Positions 816 through 13,587 of a stretch of DNA of 64,000 bases are shown piece after piece (position 1 is the first letter of the stretch; each line of letters starts with the position of its first letter). A program made the position numbers and the translations under genes. Source of the stretch: a virus; IMG/VR virus record IMGVR_UViG_3300045988_168118; one strand, written 5' to 3'. The notes under the pieces are model-generated. The model ran no database searches. It saw nothing but the letters and a program-made list of their open reading frames with translations, and was not told the origin of the DNA.

Positions 816-1006
816 TGGCATTTTACACAAAATATAATAAAATATTTTGTCTATTTTGACTATTGACAGGTTTAGCATTGTGCATAATAGAGAAAATTGG
901 CGGATTTTGATATAAAATTTTGTTCATTTTACCTATTGACAGAGATTTTTGTGCAAAACGGAGAATTTTGGGATAAAAAGTTTTTTATTTTTGTGCATTT
1001 TTTCTC

Positions 1007-1035
1007 TTGACAAAATCGTCAGCGTATGGTATAAT
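1007..1035 (+). promoter_or_regulatory. Plus-strand consensus promoter (TTGACA 1007-1012, TGgTATAAT 1027-1035), left half of face-to-face promoter unit A.
   Basis: 17-nt spacer and extended -10. Upstream tgtgcattttttctcttgacaaaat is identical to the upstream context of unit C at 4485-4509. No plus-strand gene lies downstream. Confidence 0.55.
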
Positions 1036-1044
1036 GGATATTTC

Positions 1045-1067
1045 GGTCGCCTTGATCCAAGGCGACC
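1045..1067. other. GC-rich hairpin ggtcgcc-ttgatccaa-ggcgacc centred between the two facing promoters of unit A.
   Basis: 7-bp perfect stem. Equivalent hairpins with different sequence but the same position occur in units B (4353-4375) and C (4533-4566). Confidence 0.55.
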
Positions 1068-1071
1068 CGCT

Positions 1072-1100
1072 ATTATACCACACTTTCGGGTGCTTGTCAA
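1072..1100 (-). promoter_or_regulatory. Minus-strand consensus promoter, right half of unit A.
   Basis: Reverse complement reads ttgacaagcacccgaaagtgtggtataat: -35 at 1100-1095, 17-nt spacer, extended -10 TGgTATAAT. Confidence 0.5.
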
Positions 1101-1290
1101 TAGGCAAAATAAACAAAATAAAAAATTTTTTGAGCCTTATTTTTGTTACATTTTCACAAAATTATAGACTGGGACTCTTTGTGCAACAATACCAAAATTA
1201 TAAAAATTTTTTGGCTATTTTTGTAATTTATGTGCATTGACTTTTTTGTTCTCTGGTATTTTTAAATAAAAAACATCCCTCCAGCAGCGG

Positions 1291-2380: not shown

Positions 2381-2409
2381 ATTATATCGCATCTTAGCTT
2401 AAAAGTCAA
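2381..2409 (-). promoter_or_regulatory. Sigma-70-type promoter (TTGACT-17-TATAAT), copy 1 of a 63-nt exactly duplicated cassette (2358-2419 = 3149-3210).
   Basis: Placed by the 791-nt offset from the identical copy at 3172-3200. The conserved leader contains the palindrome TTGTAACAA. Confidence 0.55.
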
Positions 2410-3116
2410 GCACTTTCGTGTAATTCTTTTCTTTTTTTCTGCGGCAGTCTCCAACATGACGGCTTAATACTTCTATCCATTTTTTTATGCTGGTCAAAAC
2501 ATTTTTTCATAATTTCAATTTCAATTTTTACATCTTCTAAGCCTGTATGAGATTCTACAAAATCAATATTCTTTTTAATATATTTATAGCATACCTCAGC
2601 GTTAGTTAAAAGATTGCCTTTTTCAGACTCAAATCCGTTTTTCTCAGCAAATTTGATATAGGTGTTTGTACTTAAAATCATCTGACAAGCCATGTTCCAA
2701 ATACAAAAATATTCTGTACCATAAGGGAAAAACCAGCGAATAAAACTTTTGCTATGGTATCTAATAGCATTGTTTAATGCTTTTCTATCAAAATTCATAT
2801 TGTAAGCACCAACTTTTTTCACATTATATTCTCTCATGTCTGCAAACATCTGTTTTCTAATATTGAAAATGCTTTTCATGGTTCTTTTTCCGCTTTTTAA
2901 ATCATCCCAGTATTTCGGAATTTTTTCAGCGTAGTAGGCACTATTCATAGCTTCTTTCAAGTCAATAAATGTCTCAGCGACTACAAAGCTTCTTTCGGTG
3001 ACAATGTTACCGTGTCTATCTGCAATAGCATAGCCAATATCATAAGGGATTGGTTCATTTACACTATTCGCAGTTTCTGTATCCAATACCATGAAAAACT
3101 CTTTTCTTCTACTCAT
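2406..3116 (-). CDS. DEDDh-family 3'-5' exonuclease (DnaQ/epsilon, oligoribonuclease-like).
   Basis: Exo I motif VLDTETAN, Exo II GAYNMNFDRKAL and Exo III HTGLEDV are all present. The likely true start is ATG at 3116 (MSRRKEFF), 9 nt after GAGGA. The track start at 3131 is a TTG. Confidence 0.6.
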   Translation of the reverse strand: MSRRKEFFMVLDTETANSVNEPIPYDIGYAIADRHGNIVTERSFVVAETFIDLKEAMNSAYYAEKIPKYWDDLKSGKRTMKSIFNIRKQMFADMREYNVKKVGAYNMNFDRKALNNAIRYHSKSFIRWFFPYGTEYFCIWNMACQMILSTNTYIKFAEKNGFESEKGNLLTNAEVCYKYIKKNIDFVESHTGLEDVKIEIEIMKKCFDQHKKMDRSIKPSCWRLPQKKRKELHESA

Positions 3117-3171
3117 TTTTGATTTCCTCAACTTTCATTTATTTTTTTTACTATTAACTTGTTACAATGGT

Positions 3172-3407: not shown

Positions 3408-3881
3408 CTATAAAAAATTTTTTAAGATTTCCATAATATTATTTACATCAAAAGCACCTTTTCCCCACTCGATTCGATTTTTTTCTTCATCATCAAAAAG
3501 CCACCCCTTGCAATCAACGACAGTACTTTTTGGTGTACCATAGTTTACAATTTTGATTTCATCCCATTTAATACTAGGTAAGTGTTTTTCAAGCCATGCA
3601 AGTTTTACACTTGTTACCGCCGTATTATAAGAAGCTGACCCGCTTTTACTTAACCAGCTTACAATACCAATTCTATAGCCATTAGCTTGTAACTTGTGAA
3701 GCACTCTTGCGAAAACTGAAAAATTAAAAAGTGGTTTTGCTACTTTGTATGGTGTAGTGTCTTCTTTTTCCAAATATGCTAACCAGTTTTCCACGCCGTA
3801 GAAGTTAGCAAGTGTGCCGTCCATGTCAAAATAAATAGTTCCCTTTGTGCTCATCATTTCTTTAATTGTATTATCCATCAT
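3408..3881 (-). CDS. HAD-superfamily 5'(3')-deoxyribonucleotidase-like protein (NT5C family).
   Basis: HAD motif I in YFDMDGTLANF, as in the cytosolic deoxyribonucleotidase VDMDGVLADF. The track start at 3893 is a TTG. The real start is probably the ATG-ATG at 3881/3878. Confidence 0.55.
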   Translation of the reverse strand: MMDNTIKEMMSTKGTIYFDMDGTLANFYGVENWLAYLEKEDTTPYKVAKPLFNFSVFARVLHKLQANGYRIGIVSWLSKSGSASYNTAVTSVKLAWLEKHLPSIKWDEIKIVNYGTPKSTVVDCKGWLFDDEEKNRIEWGKGAFDVNNIMEILKNFL

Positions 3882-3993
3882 AATAATTATCAATCCTTTC
3901 TTTTTTGATTATCGCAAGTGCCTTGCGACCGACCGCTCATTATGTAAGCTTTGCTTTATTTCTGATTTAAGTTTAATGTCCTTTGACAAGTAT

Positions 3994-4022: not shown

Positions 4023-4319
4023 ATTTATTTTTTATTGTGCAAAAGTGATGAAATTTTATATAAAAATCATAGTATTTTTGTCAAAATATACAAATGTAGA
4101 AAAATAATGCGGATTTAGGCGGATTCTTGTGCATTTTGCTACCTTAAATATCACATATTGTGTTTCTGCGTGTCAAAAAAGGTATGATTTTTTATTAAAA
4201 TTTCGTCACTTTGCACAAGGTGTAGAAAATTTTGGTATTATTTTATTAAATTTTGTGCATTTTGTATACCATGTCAAAAAATGGGATTTTTTTAATTTAT
4301 TTTTTGTGCAAATTGCCTA

Positions 4320-4348
4320 TTGACAAAAAGGTGCTAGATGTGGTATAA
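4320..4348 (+). promoter_or_regulatory. Plus-strand consensus promoter, left half of unit B.
   Basis: gcctattgaca-aaaaggtgctagatgtgg-tataat: -35 at 4320-4325, -10 at 4343-4348, extended TGg. Preceded by ttttgtgcaaattgcctattgaca. Confidence 0.55.
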
Positions 4349-4394
4349 TAAAATTTCGGGGTGCCCCGACCCCGAACGGACTTTGCCCTCTTTC

Positions 4395-4423
4395 ATTATA
4401 ACATACTCGAGCCACCTTGTCAA
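4395..4423 (-). promoter_or_regulatory. Minus-strand consensus promoter, right half of unit B.
   Basis: Reverse complement reads ttgacaaggtggctcgagtatgttataat (TGtTATAAT). It is followed on the minus strand by gaaagaggg and then the hairpin at 4353-4375 (ttcgggg..ccccgaa). Confidence 0.5.
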
Positions 4424-4501
4424 GAGTTTTTTTCAAAAAAAATGCACAAATTTTGGGATAAAAATTTTGAAAAATTTGTGCATTTTTTCTCTTGACAAAA
4501 T

Positions 4502-4530
4502 GTCTCAACTATGTTATAATGGAAGGCTCG
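4502..4530 (+). promoter_or_regulatory. Plus-strand consensus promoter, left half of unit C.
   Basis: ttgacaaaatgtctcaactatgttataat. Its upstream 25 nt are identical to unit A. Confidence 0.55.
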
Positions 4531-4568
4531 GCTCGCATTGACTGCTCGCGAGCCGGCTATTATAACAC

Positions 4569-4597
4569 ATTTTCCGCGACTTGTCAACCCCTTTTTA
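4569..4597 (-). promoter_or_regulatory. Minus-strand consensus promoter, right half of unit C.
   Basis: Reverse complement reads ttgacaagtcgcggaaaatgtgttataat. The hairpin ggctcgc-attgactgctc-gcgagcc (4533-4566) abuts both -10 elements. Confidence 0.5.
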
Positions 4598-4663
4598 AAA
4601 AATTTTTTATTTTCGTCATTTTGCACAAAAATAAAATTCAGCATTTTGCACAAAAAACAAAAG

Positions 4664-4903: not shown

Positions 4904-4925
4904 TATTGTTTTCCTCTCTTTCTTT

Positions 4926-4954
4926 AACTGTCTTTATTATATCACAAGAAGCTG
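4926..4954 (-). promoter_or_regulatory. Sigma-70-type promoter with conserved AAAGAGAGG leader.
   Basis: Reverse complement reads ttgacaaaatcagcttcttgtgatataat. Confidence 0.55.
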
Positions 4955-4971
4955 ATTTTGTCAACCCCTTT

Positions 4972-5205
4972 TTATAAAATTCCTTCAATTTTACAACATC
5001 TTCTGCAAGCATTAATACAATCATTCCATGCGTCATCATCATTTGCGTACTGCGTCAAGATTCTCTCATCCCACCCATCTTCTAACCCACAAGTAAACCA
5101 AACGTCAATGACAATGTCTTCGCTAATATTTTCTCTGATAAAAACATCCATCTGTCTAAGAAGATTCTTTCTAATTCTAACTATCTCTTTTCTTGATACG
5201 CTCAT
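4972..5205 (-). CDS. Early Cys-rich small protein, 77 aa (MSVSRKEIVRIRKNLLRQMDVFIRENISEDIV...CINACRRCCKIEGIL). Paralog of 5222..5509.
   Basis: The start is reassigned to ATG at 5205, after promoter 5236-5264 and RBS AGAGAGG. The track extends it upstream to 5346 through the promoter. Confidence 0.5.
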   Translation of the reverse strand: MSVSRKEIVRIRKNLLRQMDVFIRENISEDIVIDVWFTCGLEDGWDERILTQYANDDDAWNDCINACRRCCKIEGIL

Positions 5206-5221
5206 TTTATTTACCTCTCTT

Positions 5222-5509
5222 TCATTTGATACATTTATTATACCATATTTCCGACTTTTTGTCAACCCCTTTTTTAAAAAAATCAATTCCTTCAATTTCA
5301 AAACATTTGCGATAAGCGTTAATACAATTACACCAAGAATCATCATCGCTTACACACTTTGTTAGAATATCATCATTCCATCCATCTTTAAACAGGGGAA
5401 GCCAAACATTAGTTATTACGTCTTCACTAATGTATTTTCTGATGAATGAATTCATTCGTCTGAGATAATACTTTTTAATTTCAATTATTTCATCTCTTGA
5501 AAACTCCAT
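5222..5509 (-). CDS. Early Cys-rich small protein, 95 aa. Paralog of 4972..5205. Its C-terminus reads through the next promoter.
   Basis: ISEDVITNVWLPLFKDGWNDDILTKCVSDDDSWCNCINAYRKCFEIEG aligns with ISEDIVIDVWFTCGLEDGWDERILTQYANDDDAWNDCINACRRCCKIEG. Promoter 5537-5565. Confidence 0.5.
   Translation of the reverse strand: MEFSRDEIIEIKKYYLRRMNSFIRKYISEDVITNVWLPLFKDGWNDDILTKCVSDDDSWCNCINAYRKCFEIEGIDFFKKGVDKKSEIWYNKCIK
5236..5264 (-). promoter_or_regulatory. Sigma-70-type promoter followed by the ATCAAATGAAAGAGAGG leader.
   Basis: Reverse complement reads ttgacaaaaagtcggaaatatggtataat. Confidence 0.55.
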
Positions 5510-5536
5510 TTTTCCTCTCTTTCATTTGATATATTT

Positions 5537-5565
5537 ATTATACTATAGGTCTTGACTTTTGTCAA
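5537..5565 (-). promoter_or_regulatory. Sigma-70-type promoter whose -35 lies in a perfect palindrome ggtcttgac-tttt-gtcaagacc (5546-5567).
   Basis: Reverse complement reads ttgacaaaagtcaagacctatagtataat, followed by the atcaaatgaaagagagg leader. Confidence 0.55.
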
Positions 5566-5584
5566 GACCTATTTTAAATTAGTT

Positions 5585-5746
5585 TTAAAGAAGTTTTTGA
5601 AGTTTGCCGTCAGCATCAAATTGAAAGCCAATGTTTTCACCATAAGAAGAAAGCTCAGCTTCAAAATAATCCTTTTCCTCATAGCAAATCTCTATGTCGG
5701 CTTTTTTAAAAATCTGTAATAAAATTTCTTTATCTGTTTTTTTCAT
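5585..5746 (-). CDS. Small early protein, 53 aa (MKKTDKEILLQIFKKADIEICYEEKDYFEAELSSYGENIGFQFDADGKLQKLL). Not in the ORF track.
   Basis: Promoter 5783-5811 (TTGACA-17-TATACT) and RBS AAGAGG before ATG at 5746. Confidence 0.3.
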   Translation of the reverse strand: MKKTDKEILLQIFKKADIEICYEEKDYFEAELSSYGENIGFQFDADGKLQKLL

Positions 5747-5782
5747 TTTTATCAACCTCTTTCTCTTTCATTTGATATATTA

Positions 5783-5811
5783 AGTATAGCAGATATTTTT
5801 TATTTTGTCAA
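5783..5811 (-). promoter_or_regulatory. Sigma-70-type promoter (TTGACA-17-TATACT) with ATCAAATGAAAGAGAAAGAGG leader.
   Basis: Reverse complement of 5783-5811. Confidence 0.45.
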
Positions 5812-5873
5812 GCCTTTTTTAAAAAAAGGAAGATTTTTTATCTTCCTTTTTTCCCCATAACTCCATCTTGTTT

Positions 5874-6154: not shown

Positions 6155-6186
6155 ATTTCTTTACCTCTCTTTCATTTGATAATACT

Positions 6187-6215
6187 ATGATACTATATTT
6201 CCTTGCTTTTGTCAA
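6187..6215 (-). promoter_or_regulatory. Sigma-70-type promoter with ATCAAATGAAAGAGAGG leader.
   Basis: Reverse complement reads ttgacaaaagcaaggaaatatagtatcat. Confidence 0.45.
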
Positions 6216-6264
6216 GCATTTTAGGAAAATTTCTAAAGATTTTTTTATGCGGATTTCCACTGAA

Positions 6265-7251: not shown

Positions 7252-7262
7252 GCTTTATTTAC

Positions 7263-7640
7263 AGTATTTTTATTTATTTTAATGCATATTTACTCATGTT
7301 ATTAAGATTAATAGTTAGTTTTAAATATATATATTTATATCTTTTTTATAAATAGTAAAATAAAATATAATATAAATATTATCATACTATTTTATTTAGT
7401 ATTATTTTATAAGCTTATTATTATTATTATTATACTATCTTATTATAATTATTATAAGATATTACAGTACCAATGTTAACATTATTATCATTATATTTCT
7501 TCTTTATATATAGTTATAATTGATAAGATTAACAATAATATAAGATAATGTTATTGTTAATTATATTTATGTATTGTATTGTTATAATATTGTATTATTA
7601 TTATTATTATTATTATCTTTCTTTTGTCTTAAGCTTAACC
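7263..7640. repeat. A/T-only tract of about 380 bp and roughly 10% GC, with (ATT)n/(TTA)n microsatellites at 7417-7434 and 7596-7618 and short TATA/ATAAT repeats. No ORF.
   Basis: Seen directly. Stop codons are frequent in all frames. Confidence 0.7.
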
Positions 7641-7679
7641 TCTCATTATAGCACCTTTAGCTCATTCTGTCAATAGACA

Positions 7680-7935
7680 TTTTACACAATTTTTCCTTTA
7701 AAACTTTGTGCAGATTGCCTATTGACATTTTTTGTCTATTGACATTTTACACAAAAATGAGAATATATTTTTGTACACTTTTACTATTGACAGGGTTTGT
7801 CAATAGACATAATGCACAAAATTTTCCACGTATTTTTGTACAATTTTACCTATTGACAAGTTCATTTTAGGAAAATATCTTTGTGCATTTTTTACAAAAA
7901 TTTAGCCAAAAATTTGTGCATTTTGCCTATTGACA
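7680..7935. promoter_or_regulatory. Cluster of at least 6 copies of the 9-10-mer (C/T)CTATTGACA(G/A) in both orientations, interleaved with TTGTGCA/TGCACAA half-sites. Includes the palindrome ctattgacagggtttgtcaatag. Iteron-like or operator array.
   Basis: Copies at about 7727, 7745, 7786, 7800 (reverse), 7850 and 7922. Most lack a good -10 at 17 nt, so they are unlikely all to be promoters. The triple composite tttgtgcaNNttgcctattgaca occurs at 4300, 7717 and 7910. Confidence 0.5.
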
Positions 7936-8451
7936 GGCTTCTCGGAGCGTTGCGAAAGTGTACGCTCCGACGATAGATGGCAAGCTACCAATAGCCAATA
8001 AAAATTCTAATCTTCTTGCTTTATTTTAGTTATTTAAAGAATTTATTTTATTAGTTTAACTCTTTCTCCTCTTTGCTTAAAATAATGTGTTCAAAACTCT
8101 TCTGAACAAAAAGCATATCCTCTTTGGAAAATGATTTGAAAAATTATTTGTTAGGCGGTGTCTTGTTGCTTCTTGCTCAAAAGAGATGCTCAAACTACAG
8201 ACCATACTTAAACATAATGCCGGGGTATATTAAAGGATTAAAATTTTTTACTTTTATAAAAAGATAGTGTTCTCCACAATTCTCTCTCCAAAAATTTTTT
8301 CAAATCTAAAAGTCTAAAAATAAAATCAAAAAACGAGAATTAAAAATCTCTCCAAAAAATTTTTTTAAACAAATTAAAATAAAATAAAATAAAGAGGATT
8401 TTAAAAAAATAAAAATATTTCTCATTTTCTCTTTAAAAACTACCCGCGATA

Positions 8452-9204
8452 TCAAACAAGGCTCCGAAAAGCGTCTAAATTAGATCCATTAGGGATAGCA
8501 AAAATTATTTTTTTAAAAATATAATTATTAGATAATTTCATAAATATCTTTTTAACTTCATTAGGATCTTGACCAAAAGCTCCGCATCCAAAAGCTCCTA
8601 AGATTAGAACATCAATTTTATTTTTCGCCGCAATGTCTAAAATAAAAGAGATTCTTTCTTTTAAAGCCTTAGTATTTTCTTCATCTGTTATCCCATTACG
8701 CTTAGCTTCTTTTTTATTCGGGGCTGCACAAGTAATAATATCACAATTATAAAAATCTTCAAAAAGAATGTTTGGACTATAAATCGCTCTATTCCAATAC
8801 AAACCGCGATTTATTAAGTTTTTATTTTCTCCATAAAAATCTTCTCTTTGCCGCCACAAAATATTATAAAGAATAGACTTATGACATAAGCTTCCTTCTT
8901 GAGTACTACTTCCTTTTAAAAAGCCTCCGCCAGGATATTTAAAAGATGCAAAATTAAGTGCGGCAATCTTACTATCAGGAAATTCAGATACAGCTTTTTT
9001 AATAGCATTAACAGTATCAGTTTCCCATATTTCATAATTAAGATTTTTTTCATTTATTTTCTTCATTTTATTTGCAATAGAACCTGGCACAAAACCACTA
9101 TAATATTTAGTTCTTGCGTTACACCATGCGATTTTATCTGAATATTCTTTTTCCATTTTATAAAAATGATTTATGGCTTGAATAGCTCTTTCTTTTTTAT
9201 TCAT
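8452..9204 (-). CDS. Bacterial-type poly(ADP-ribose) glycohydrolase / macrodomain hydrolase (DUF2263, TIGR02452 family).
   Basis: PARG signature NFASFKYPGGGFLKGSSTQEGSLCHKSILY (GGG-X7-QE) plus the diphosphate loop GAFGCGAFGQDP. It closely mirrors the NFANPxxPGGGFLxGAxAQEExLCRxSxLY and GAWGCGVFGN motifs of bacterial PARGs. The second catalytic Glu is replaced, giving QEG rather than QEE. Confidence 0.65.
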   Translation of the reverse strand: MNKKERAIQAINHFYKMEKEYSDKIAWCNARTKYYSGFVPGSIANKMKKINEKNLNYEIWETDTVNAIKKAVSEFPDSKIAALNFASFKYPGGGFLKGSSTQEGSLCHKSILYNILWRQREDFYGENKNLINRGLYWNRAIYSPNILFEDFYNCDIITCAAPNKKEAKRNGITDEENTKALKERISFILDIAAKNKIDVLILGAFGCGAFGQDPNEVKKIFMKLSNNYIFKKIIFAIPNGSNLDAFRSLV

Positions 9205-9414: not shown

Positions 9415-9762
9415 TTATTTTCCTCCTATTTTAATTACTTTACCATGCTTTCCATTCATTTTCATTTTCATAATAATTTTTCTAATTATTGCATCTTTTC
9501 CGTCATAAAAAAATATACCAAAATCAATATTTTCTACCATTTTCTGAATTAATTTATCTATGTTGCGATCAAATACATATTCAATAGGAGCACCATTATT
9601 TTCTGCCCATATTTTTCCAATAGACTCCGAGAGCTTCTTCTCCGTATTCCCGCAAACAACAGTAAATAAATAACATTGCGTTTCGCGGATAAAATCTTCC
9701 ATAGTTGCGGAGACTAGGCGATTATCTGCGAAACCGCGACTTCCAAGAATACTAATTTTCAT
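9415..9762 (-). CDS. DUF2493 / SLOG-superfamily (DprA/LOG-like Rossmann) protein.
   Basis: ILGSRGF...VVCGNTEKKLSESIGKIWAENNGAPIEYVF...FFYDGKDAIIRKIIMKMKMNGKHGKVIKI matches the DUF2493 pattern vtGsRdf...vhGgarGaD...waae.gvp.e.f...fwdGkSrGTkhmielakk.gkpv.vi. RBS AAGAGGAAAAAG. Confidence 0.5.
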   Translation of the reverse strand: MKISILGSRGFADNRLVSATMEDFIRETQCYLFTVVCGNTEKKLSESIGKIWAENNGAPIEYVFDRNIDKLIQKMVENIDFGIFFYDGKDAIIRKIIMKMKMNGKHGKVIKIGGK

Positions 9763-12607: not shown

Positions 12608-13587
12608 AAAATATAATTATAAGTAAAGGAGGAGCATTAAAAATGAGTGCAAAAAACGTCCTAACTAATTTTAATAAAATTGATACTGAAGAAAAAGCTT
12701 ATTGGTTAGGCTTTTTATATGCGGATGGAAGTGTTGGTTCTAAAGAAGATAAAATAGAACTAGGACTAGCAAAAAAAGATTTAAAACATATAGAAAAATT
12801 TAGAGATTTTATGAATATAACTAATAAAATTAGCTATAGAGAAAGAACAAAATCTTATAGAATGAGTTTTAGGAATGCTCAATGTAAACAGGATTTAATA
12901 GATAAAGGGTGCGTTCCTAAAAAATCATTAATTCTTGATTTTCCAAATGAAAAACAAGTACCAAAACATTTAATTAGACATTTTATAAGAGGGTATTTTG
13001 ATGGCGATGGATGGTTTACAAATACAGAAAGTTGTTTTCAAATAGGTATAATCGGAACTGAAAATTTTATAAAAGGTTTTTTGAAATCTATTGAAAATAT
13101 AAATAAAGAAAATAAAATTTTCGATGTTCATAGAGAAAATGGAGCTAAAAGATATGTTTTTGGAGCTTATGAAGATGTTTTAAATTTTTTAAATTGGATT
13201 TATAAAGATTCAAGTATTTATTTGGAAAGAAAATATGCTAGTTATTTAGATTTTATCCAAAATGGAAGTAAGTATCATAAAATAAAATAAAAAATTTTTG
13301 CCGTATATTAAAGAAATTTAATATATGATTATTGCGGAATTAAGCGGGGAGGCTGAGATGCTAATCCGAACCGAAGGCTATAGGAACTATAGTCAGGGGC
13401 AACGCATAGATGGTGAAAAGATATAATCCATCCACGAGTCCGCAACACAGCATTATATAGGAATGCTTGAGACTATCTCACCAATAGTCAAACCTAACGT
13501 AAAACGAGGGTGAAAAGATATGCTAAGCTTATACGAAAAAGAAGTATAAGAACTAAAGGATAAAAAGCCTTTAGGATAATATAACTG
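12608..13587 (+). mobile_element. Group I-like self-splicing intron of about 980 nt interrupting TerL and carrying a LAGLIDADG homing-endonuclease ORF. Boundaries are inferred.
   Basis: The exon 2 frame opens at 13585 with no start codon or RBS, yet encodes conserved TerL sequence (EQAASITIAKIEEICKLIPALNNELDWSRG...SSRGQRRTGGLMEE). Joining after U12607 and G13587 restores the frame to give ...FVTTGG|KEQAASITIAK.... The 3' part of the intron (13300-13587) is non-coding. Confidence 0.55.
12643..13290 (+). CDS. LAGLIDADG homing endonuclease with two motifs, encoded within the intron.
   Basis: Motifs YWLGFLYADGSVG and IRGYFDGDGWF. Own RBS AAGGAGG. Confidence 0.8.
   Translation: MSAKNVLTNFNKIDTEEKAYWLGFLYADGSVGSKEDKIELGLAKKDLKHIEKFRDFMNITNKISYRERTKSYRMSFRNAQCKQDLIDKGCVPKKSLILDFPNEKQVPKHLIRHFIRGYFDGDGWFTNTESCFQIGIIGTENFIKGFLKSIENINKENKIFDVHRENGAKRYVFGAYEDVLNFLNWIYKDSSIYLERKYASYLDFIQNGSKYHKIK

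Follow-up and report, generated by a model that had tools for sequence, protein, structure and literature searches.

Why would a phage set two perfect promoters face to face across a GC-rich hairpin, and do so three times in its early region? The question is raised by positions 1007–1100 of the IMG/VR virus record IMGVR_UViG_3300045988_168118, a stretch of 64,000 nucleotides (nt) that was analyzed whole and is called the window here. Its GC content is ~30%, and its first 9.8 kb form the early region, made up of small − strand open reading frames (ORFs), almost all with a − strand consensus promoter of their own. An earlier note, made from the letters alone, had read a pair of sigma-70 promoters around a hairpin at 1007–1100 (unit A) and had placed two more such units (B and C) at 4320–4423 and 4502–4597. 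Our answer is that the three units are copies of a conserved, previously undescribed control cassette, the function of which we infer. In each pair, the + strand promoter, which is antisense to the early genes, is called P2, and the − strand promoter, which is sense, is called P1.

The window contains six promoters that match the consensus hexamers at 12 of 12 positions and carry the extended −10 TG, and these form three convergent pairs. The + strand members, beginning at 1007, 4320, and 4492, are the only full-consensus + strand promoters of the early region, and their − strand partners face them from 1100, 4423, and 4587. Two places in the window match the composite TTGACA-N17-TATAAT-N25-50-ATTATA-N17-TGTCAA, whereas 100 dinucleotide-preserving shuffles give an expectation of 0.00. 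Unit B is not caught by this pattern for the sole reason that the spacer of its P2 is 18 nt; it is 17 nt in the other five promoters. Full-consensus sigma-70/sigma-A promoters facing each other around a GC-rich hairpin, as the earlier note had proposed, are thus borne out.

Unit A extends over 963–1122 (+) and consists of a GGGA box, a TTTGTGCA box, P2, the hairpin, P1, and a second box; the family profile described below recognizes it with 133.5 bits (nhmmer, E 2e-40). Its P2 (TTGACA-17-TGgTATAAT) lies at 1007–1035 (+), preceded by TTTGTGCA-N9 at 990–1006, and its P1, in the direction of the early genes, at 1072–1100 (−), with the upstream box at 1095–1117 on the − strand. Folding places the hairpin GGTCGCCTTG-atc-CAAGGCGACC at 1045–1067, with a 10-base pair (bp) stem and a 3-nt loop; its energy is −17.8 kcal/mol when read on the + strand (z −4.2) and −18.3 kcal/mol when read on the − strand (z about −4). 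In unit B, P2 (4320–4349, +; box at 4303–4325) and P1 (4395–4423, −) enclose the hairpin TTCGGGG(T)...(A)CCCCGAA at 4355–4376, whose stem of 8 bp folds at −14.4 kcal/mol (z −1.7); read on the − strand, this hairpin has AUUUUAUUAU behind it and resembles a terminator. Unit C has P2 at 4492–4520 (+; box at 4475–4497), P1 at 4559–4587 (−), and, by folding, the hairpin GGC.CGGCTCGC ... GCGAGCCGGCT at 4525–4558 (8+3 bp, −19.1 kcal/mol, z −2.5). It therefore occupies 4492–4587; the earlier coordinates were 10 nt too high.

The hairpin had also been described as lying exactly midway in a symmetric element, which it does not. The stem of unit A begins 9 nt past the −10 of P2, and its last base is 4 nt before the −10 of P1; unit B has extra nucleotides on the P1 side, where P1 is ~18–20 nt farther from the hairpin than in the other units. 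The layout is asymmetric, and the asymmetry itself is conserved across the family. The count of three repeats holds for full units, to which a degenerate fourth copy at about 7913–7975 (+) has to be added: a 23-bp box with TTGACA, 6–7 nt, and the hairpin TCGGAGCG...CGCTCCGA, with no −10 on either side.

How widespread is this arrangement? At least 119 IMG/VR loci with the face-to-face promoter pattern served as the starting set. Among the loci listed, one class shares 36–39 nt between the −10 boxes, a GC-rich stem, and the order TATAAT-GGAAATTTC-stem-loop-(C)GCC-ATTATA. A 164-column profile built from this class describes ~160 bp per unit, with a TTTGTGyA box 9 nt before the −35 at both ends. 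Searching with it (nhmmer) gave 58 unique full units, and a looser criterion gave 92 unique modules of P2 plus GC hairpin. Their sources are viral contigs of 29–48% GC, the phage phAss-1 with its deposited record (OQ749652), and four short contigs of metagenome-assembled genomes (MAGs), which look like mis-binned phage. P2 is a 12/12 match in 87 of the 92 modules; P1 reaches at least 10/12 in 53 and is absent (≤8/12) in 35, as in the half modules of loci L048, L078, L096, and L116. Judged by these matches, the invariant core is P2 with the hairpin at its predicted start, and P1 is a frequent, optional addition.

A scan of bacterial MAG contigs showed that face-to-face consensus pairs are frequent in Clostridia, with 4 of 120 belonging to this family. 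A host chromosomal element was considered and rejected, since the Clostridia pairs are other sequence classes and the four family members all sit on short phage-like contigs. Among those other classes from Clostridia and phages (L121–L240 and many IMG/VR loci), which are separate families, several have palindromic operator-like spacers, for example, ATTACGAAAT...ATTTCGTAAT. When unit A and a 46% GC unit were compared by blastn with the INPHARED phage records, phAss-1 was the sole match, and the phAss-1 paper mentions neither promoters nor repeats. The literature searched holds no matching description of face-to-face or convergent early promoters with a hairpin, in agreement with the earlier note, which knew of no phage element with this layout. 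In phAss-1 (136 kb), the modules occur only at 128.7–135.0 kb and at 0.47 kb, that is, in a single early region of about 8 kb.

Is the hairpin under selection, or is it only carried along? Across 35 distinct units, 83% of stem cells are paired, against 68.5% after shuffling and 30–48% when the stem is slid. Cells changed on both sides of the stem number 34, against 11 expected, and the observed covariation score was matched by 0 of 500 shuffles. The claim that the structure is kept while the stem sequence changes therefore stands up across related genomes. Three fully compensated swaps (A-T to G-C, G-C to C-G, and C-G to G-C) separate the orthologous units L106_6077/L063_3458, which read CGAGCGCC...GGCGCTCG, from L035_2176, which reads CGGCCGCG...CGCGGCCG; the flanks are ~92% identical. 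Substitutions between close relatives fall in the 17-nt spacers and the loops, and the hexamers are spared.

The geometry is held as tightly. Folding energy lies below the dinucleotide-shuffle mean in 50 of 53 units (mean z −1.9), and the distance between the −10 boxes is 36–39 nt in 43 of 53. The main helix starts 7–9 nt from the −10 of P2 and ends 1–4 nt from the −10 of P1, with loops of 3–13 nt that have no conserved sequence. Stems are almost purely Watson–Crick, with 66 G-U pairs when read on the P2 strand and 48 on the P1 strand, a difference that is not significant. A canonical intrinsic terminator was rejected because of the U content after the stem, ~3 in 9 nt in both directions over the 53 full units, which falls short of the ≥5 U in 8 used as the criterion; the terminator scan was passed by the − strand hairpin of unit B alone.

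Recent transposition in the manner of a miniature inverted-repeat transposable element (MITE) was likewise rejected, as copies within one genome differ everywhere outside the functional motifs. The palindrome does change by rearrangement. The inner 20 bp of unit C (GGCTCGCATTGACTGCTCGC) are exactly inverted in the 97%-identical L051 (6504–6541), between the arms GGCTC/GAGCC, and L075 (7313–7337) lacks 13 nt of this hairpin, so that its −10 boxes stand 25 nt apart. It follows that the palindrome is probably recombinationally active.

What surrounds the units? The modules of one genome are all co-oriented and opposed to early transcription, with 3–6 units per genome placed between early genes and recurring every 1–4 kb. 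Outside the modules, 424 strong promoters lie on the strand opposite P2 and 69 on the P2 strand; in L063, L078, L093, and L106 there are 0 strong non-module promoters on the P2 strand against 16–22 opposite. As far as promoter matches can tell, P2 is essentially the sole class of strong promoter that opposes early transcription. In the direction of the genes, the order in L106 is as follows: the upstream gene, a hairpin terminator whose T-run merges into the TTTGTGyA box, P1, the stem-loop, the A/T linker GAAATTTC, the reversed P2, TGCACAAA ... TCCCGAAA ... TTTGTGCA, a third promoter (P3), a ribosome-binding site (RBS), and the gene. The window follows this arrangement, with P3 belonging to ORF 465–749. 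This P3 (787–815, −) is the sense promoter nearest the next early gene, matches 11/12 with TG, and has its own upstream TTTGTGTA box; P3 of L106 is likewise arranged.

Neither P1 nor P2 has an RBS and ATG behind it, and it is the separate P3 that precedes the gene. Behind P2 in the window there is no ORF other than stretches of 11–14 codons without an RBS. In the relatives of 44–46% GC, the terminator beside P1 is bordered by both an A-run and a T-run, and would therefore stop P2 transcripts too; in most cases detected by the scan, the predicted P2 RNA up to this bidirectional terminator is 104–115 nt long. For the half modules L096, L116, and L048, the predicted P2 RNA is ~60–80 nt with two hairpins, or else runs antisense into the upstream gene.

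The boxes deserve attention in their own right. Counting both orientations, the window has 12 copies of the 23-bp motif TTTGTRYA-N9-TTGACA, where 0.11 would be expected. The shorter TTGTGCA occurs 26 times against 7.1 expected, and 19 of these lie in three non-coding islands (878–1325, 4035–4653, and 7706–7920). Most boxes have a perfect extended −10 exactly 17 bp downstream and so are promoters first. Two orphan 23-bp boxes (TTTGTnyA-N9-TTGACA; 842–945, +) stand without a −10 between unit A and P3, and seven copies at 7668–7935, in both orientations and mostly without a −10, adjoin an AT-rich, low-complexity stretch with ATT runs (7260–7640). As a whole, the layout of 7260–7975, with its AT-rich stretch, box array, and orphan GC hairpin (7941–7968), resembles an iteron array with an unwinding element, or a regulatory sink. 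No initiator for such an array was identified, and the boxes also serve as −35 and upstream elements. L010, L063, L077, L085, L086, and L093 share a conserved short variant (box-TTGACA-7 nt-hairpin, in some cases continued by 7 nt-TGTCAA-box); with no −10 on either side, it cannot initiate transcription. Two further motifs accompany the boxes: several TTGTGCA boxes in 878–1325 and 4035–4653 are preceded by GCGGATT (e.g., GGCGGATTCTTGTGCA and AGCGGATTTTTTGTGCA), and a conserved GGGA(T/A)AAA motif lies ~35 nt upstream of the −35 of P2.

Which protein might read the box? ORF 1389–1802 (−) encodes a conserved early protein of 135 aa, modeled with a predicted local distance difference test (pLDDT) score of 76, in which the C-terminal part forms a winged helix-turn-helix. 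The fold matches ArsR, MarR, HxlR, and Z-alpha domains weakly (Foldseek E ≥0.015), and a relative is labelled HxlR-family by one source. The protein has a 67%-identical paralogue in the same genomes, and in many distant relatives its gene lies directly downstream of the unit. On the strength of this model it may be named a candidate binder of the box, as a lead only.

How, then, might a unit work? The estimates that follow assume a start ~7 nt after the −10. The P2 RNA is predicted to begin 0–3 nt before the stem and to keep 93% of the folding energy of the hairpin, and the P1 RNA to begin 3–6 nt inside the stem and to keep 64%. By geometry, this fits the earlier proposal of a + transcript starting just before the hairpin and a − transcript starting within it. 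The two predicted starts are ~23 bp apart on opposite strands, which would make the 5′ ends of the transcripts overlap. The DNA protected by an open complex reaches from about −55 to +20; at this spacing P1 and P2 cannot both hold such a complex, and a polymerase that fires would therefore run over the other promoter.

The reading we favor, tentatively and as something short of probable, is a cassette like the promoter-early stem-loop (PeSL) cassettes of T4-type phages to which a dedicated antisense promoter has been joined, and which acts through convergent-promoter competition, insulation, and short hairpin-capped RNAs. P2 would produce a non-coding RNA with a complete 5′-terminal hairpin, which would meet the upstream gene head-on at its end; in the 44–46% GC relatives this RNA would stop after ~105–111 nt at the bidirectional terminator, like lambda oop or P22 sar RNA. 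P1, starting inside the stem, would yield a transcript without the full hairpin, which read-through RNA from upstream would carry in full. The pair would compete and interfere, the net effect being insulation and throttling of the neighboring early transcription units, and the TTGTGCA box arrays would be the likely point at which a DNA-binding protein sets the balance between P1 and P2. Of the options listed in the earlier note, transcriptional interference and a 5′ stem-loop fit best, and a nut/put-like RNA is unlikely, as neither loops nor stems are conserved and Rfam gives no match.

Several points weigh against this proposal. All start sites and RNA ends in it come from consensus geometry, and the benefit of a strong sense promoter placed right before an insulator is not obvious. 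As the hairpin is not a canonical terminator either way, a block to read-through is speculative. No good + strand terminator lies within ~130 nt of P2 in units A and C of the window, so that the picture of short RNAs rests mainly on the relatives. Because G-U pairs clearly favor neither strand, the stem could act on both RNAs or in the DNA. L075 retains both promoters with a strongly reduced hairpin. Finally, the short variant argues for a protein that reads the box, with a predicted role in binding.

What else could the units be? One possibility is that P2 modules are genes for abundant, stable small RNAs with a 5′ GC hairpin, a short unpaired stretch, and a terminator hairpin, multicopy and made immediately after infection, which would act in trans as regulators or decoys (e.g., against host RNases or defence) with P1 secondary. 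P2 plus hairpin as the invariant core would suit such genes, a hairpin 0–3 nt from the predicted 5′ end has the geometry of a 5′ stabilizer, the half modules L096, L116, and L048 would give RNAs of ~60–80 nt with two hairpins, and likely counter-defence proteins are encoded nearby (PARG/macro, NT5C-like nucleotidase, and SLOG). However, no primary sequence of the RNA is conserved beyond what the promoter on the opposite strand needs; stems and loops vary among the copies of one genome, as one would not usually see in a trans-acting RNA that has a specific partner; Rfam offers no match; and units A and C have no terminator near them, all of which makes such genes an unlikely though serious candidate. 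The box array leads to another thought, namely that the boxes are iteron- or operator-like sites and the units parts of replication origin(s) or of transcription-activated or -primed control regions, where facing promoters would prime both leading strands; promoter-derived RNAs do serve as primers in T4 and ColE1. The excess of the 23-bp box in both orientations (12 against 0.11), the seven copies beside a 350-bp extremely AT-rich stretch (within 7260–7640), the conserved box-hairpin-box variants without a −10, and the early protein with a winged-helix fold encoded beside units in many relatives all speak for it. We nevertheless consider it quite improbable: most boxes are promoters first, the 3–6 co-oriented units of a genome each stand between early genes, the replication genes of the window are ~50 kb away, and no link joins the winged-helix protein, whose fold match is weak (Foldseek E ≥0.015), to the box. 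A single-strand origin of the sso type, in which a folded palindrome forms the promoter, was rejected, as complementarity is lacking between the two 17-nt spacers of a unit.

Might the hairpin act in the DNA, as a recombination or cruciform site within a 160-bp linker that serves to shuffle early ORFan cassettes, with the promoters being ordinary early ones? The 20-bp inversion in a 97%-identical relative and the 13-nt deletion in another are what such a linker might leave behind, stems are almost purely Watson–Crick, and the homology breakpoints and an inserted homing-endonuclease-like gene abut a unit in L106 when this genome is compared with L063 and L035; the PeSL cassettes offer a precedent. 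Yet the copies in a genome share just the promoter consensus and the boxes, too little for efficient homologous exchange, and the strict asymmetry, the perfect antisense promoter, and the compensatory stem changes would be left unexplained, so that we hold this role to be improbable. Less credible still is a nut/put-like cis-acting RNA that would make the P1 polymerase resistant to the terminators of the early region. The hairpin does lie immediately downstream of an early promoter, there are many terminators between early genes, and units recur every 1–4 kb. But P1 starts inside the stem and leaves its RNA ~64% of the stability, the unconserved loops and stems offer no motif specific to a protein or to the polymerase, neither a conserved boxA/boxB loop nor a two-stem put fold was found, P1 is missing from 35 of 92 modules, and Rfam is silent; we would be very surprised to see it confirmed. 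An N4-type hairpin promoter was rejected because the loops are variable and the ORF of 2842 aa, instead of being a virion RNA polymerase, encodes a tape measure protein (PF10145); what the phage does have is a sigma factor of its own. A last idea, to which we give a slim chance, is that of a programmable polymerase gate, in which antisense promoter and hairpin flip early units between sense expression and antisense blockade, or of a burst of 5′-hairpin RNA as an agent of host takeover or anti-defence. In such a gate, P1 would initiate with G in the GC-rich discriminator/stem and P2 with A or U in the A/T linker, and the inputs might be the levels of GTP and ATP as initiating nucleotides, supercoiling, or a box-binding winged-helix protein.

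The rest of the window helps to place the promoter-hairpin units. From 9.9 kb on, + strand genes encode the phage sigma factor, terminase, portal, and tape measure protein, and a − strand replication block with NrdD and a large DNA polymerase occupies 54–64 kb. The portal protein is 100% identical to the portals of two IMG/VR contigs, and the exact protein of ORF 1389–1802 is present on contigs of up to 140 kb. ORF 2406–3131 (−) belongs to PHROG 20187, with a faint exonuclease-like match, and ORF 3408–3893 (−) encodes an NT5C-like nucleotidase; both are syntenic with the units. Homologues of these two and of ORF 1389–1802 adjoin units in phages of 29–48% GC. Because the conserved early genes next to units stay the same even in distant members, the cassette has been inherited vertically in a broad clade, and ORFs 2406–3131 and 3408–3893 are, on present matches, markers of the clade that contains phAss-1. 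Within the early (host-takeover/ORFan) region, the cassette sits between transcription units, and the clade would be one of large, apparently lytic phages that infect Clostridia of the gut.

Several further features were recorded along the way. Repeats of ~75–83 nt, 65–96% identical and comprising a promoter, a 5′ untranslated region, and an RBS, precede many small − strand early ORFs (117–199, 399–481, 4905–4978, 5200–5282, 5500–5582, 5746–5828, and 6156–6229); they are PeSL-like, without a TTTGTGCA box. Beyond the orphan box and its hairpin, ~480 bp (7976–8450) hold no ORF of ≥50 aa and match nothing in Rfam; a gene for a non-coding RNA could lie here. At the edge of the early region lie a microbial PARG/macro-domain protein (8452–9204, −) and a SLOG-family, YspA-like protein (9415–9762, −), which are possible counter-defence genes. 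A LAGLIDADG homing-endonuclease-like ORF (12643–13290, +) is found amid the packaging genes. In L106, an inserted ORF beginning MDYYVYITTNKINGKQYIG (5246–5833, −) lies next to a unit and is not in the otherwise syntenic L063 and L035; by eye its product appears GIY-YIG-like, a candidate homing endonuclease. Searches of the small ORFs near units against Pfam, PHROGs, and PDB sequences mostly gave no match, and Rfam at gathering thresholds together with a tRNA scan gave none over the entire window.

Why should this matter to those who work with such phages? They are common in human and animal gut metagenomes but uncultured; their contigs reach ~140–197 kb, and dozens of contigs carry exact protein matches. 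Because their early regions are almost entirely ORFans, a non-coding architecture that is conserved offers a rare way into the question of how the cell is taken over. A perfect antisense promoter joined to a covarying hairpin, across phages of 29–48% GC, implies a selected form of early-transcription control that is absent from textbooks. The units may also provide compact parts for synthetic biology in Clostridia and Bacillus, which would unite very strong promoters with a bidirectional 5′ hairpin and with insulation of their own. Please note a warning for annotation: in phAss-1 (OQ749652.1), the coding sequence of a "hypothetical protein" (WIC39738.1, 130698–131642) was drawn across a unit. 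It starts inside the promoter-hairpin unit at 130670–130825, and its start, or the entire coding sequence, was probably mis-called.

How does the cassette compare with known systems? Stem-loops at the 5′ terminus stabilize mRNAs such as E. coli ompA and the aprE and ermC leaders of B. subtilis, and the stable hairpin a few nucleotides from the predicted 5′ end of the P2 RNA is of this kind. The known ones protect coding mRNAs, whereas the fully capped RNA here would be non-coding. The oop RNA of lambda (77 nt) and the sar RNA of P22 (~69 nt) are short antisense RNAs of temperate phages, and P2 resembles them as a constitutive promoter that converges on early transcription and, by prediction, gives a short RNA ending at a terminator. 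They are, however, single-copy and have a defined target (the 3′ end of cII and the RBS of ant, respectively), whereas the P2 RNAs would overlap the terminator hairpin at most, with no conserved target.

Face-to-face promoters with transcriptional interference are known from coliphages 186 (pR/pL) and P2 (Pe/Pc) (PMC6593788, PMC5001618). As in these, the promoters described here converge closely enough for the 5′ ends of their predicted transcripts to overlap and for polymerases to interfere. The pair of 186 or of P2 exists in a single copy, has a gene set under each promoter, and works as a lysis–lysogeny switch with repressor operators; here there are 3–6 copies in an apparently lytic phage, no genes behind the antisense promoter, and a conserved hairpin in between.

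The closest parallel is with the PeSL cassettes of T4-type phages (Arbiol et al. 2010; PMC2839356; PMC4122927), for which insulation of cassettes and recombination have been proposed as roles (PMC2839356). In one subclass, the stem-loop lies after the −10, attenuates upstream transcription, and is incompletely contained in the promoter's own RNA (PMC2839356), and this is the position of the stem relative to P1. A PeSL has one promoter and ends in a Shine–Dalgarno sequence and start codon, neither of which holds here; the constant partner of the stem is instead an antisense promoter that no gene follows, while the sense promoter is optional. The hosts differ as well, being Gram-positive anaerobes, and these phages have no relationship to T4. 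Both systems have composite motifs that recur in the variable early/ORFan region and that combine a sigma-70-type promoter of great strength, with an A/T-rich element upstream of it, and a GC-rich stem-loop set in AT-rich DNA; in both, the stem-loop can stand downstream of the −10, so that the promoter's own RNA escapes it. The hallmark of a PeSL, a strong early promoter with an adjacent GC-rich stem-loop, repeated between early ORFans, is found here as well.

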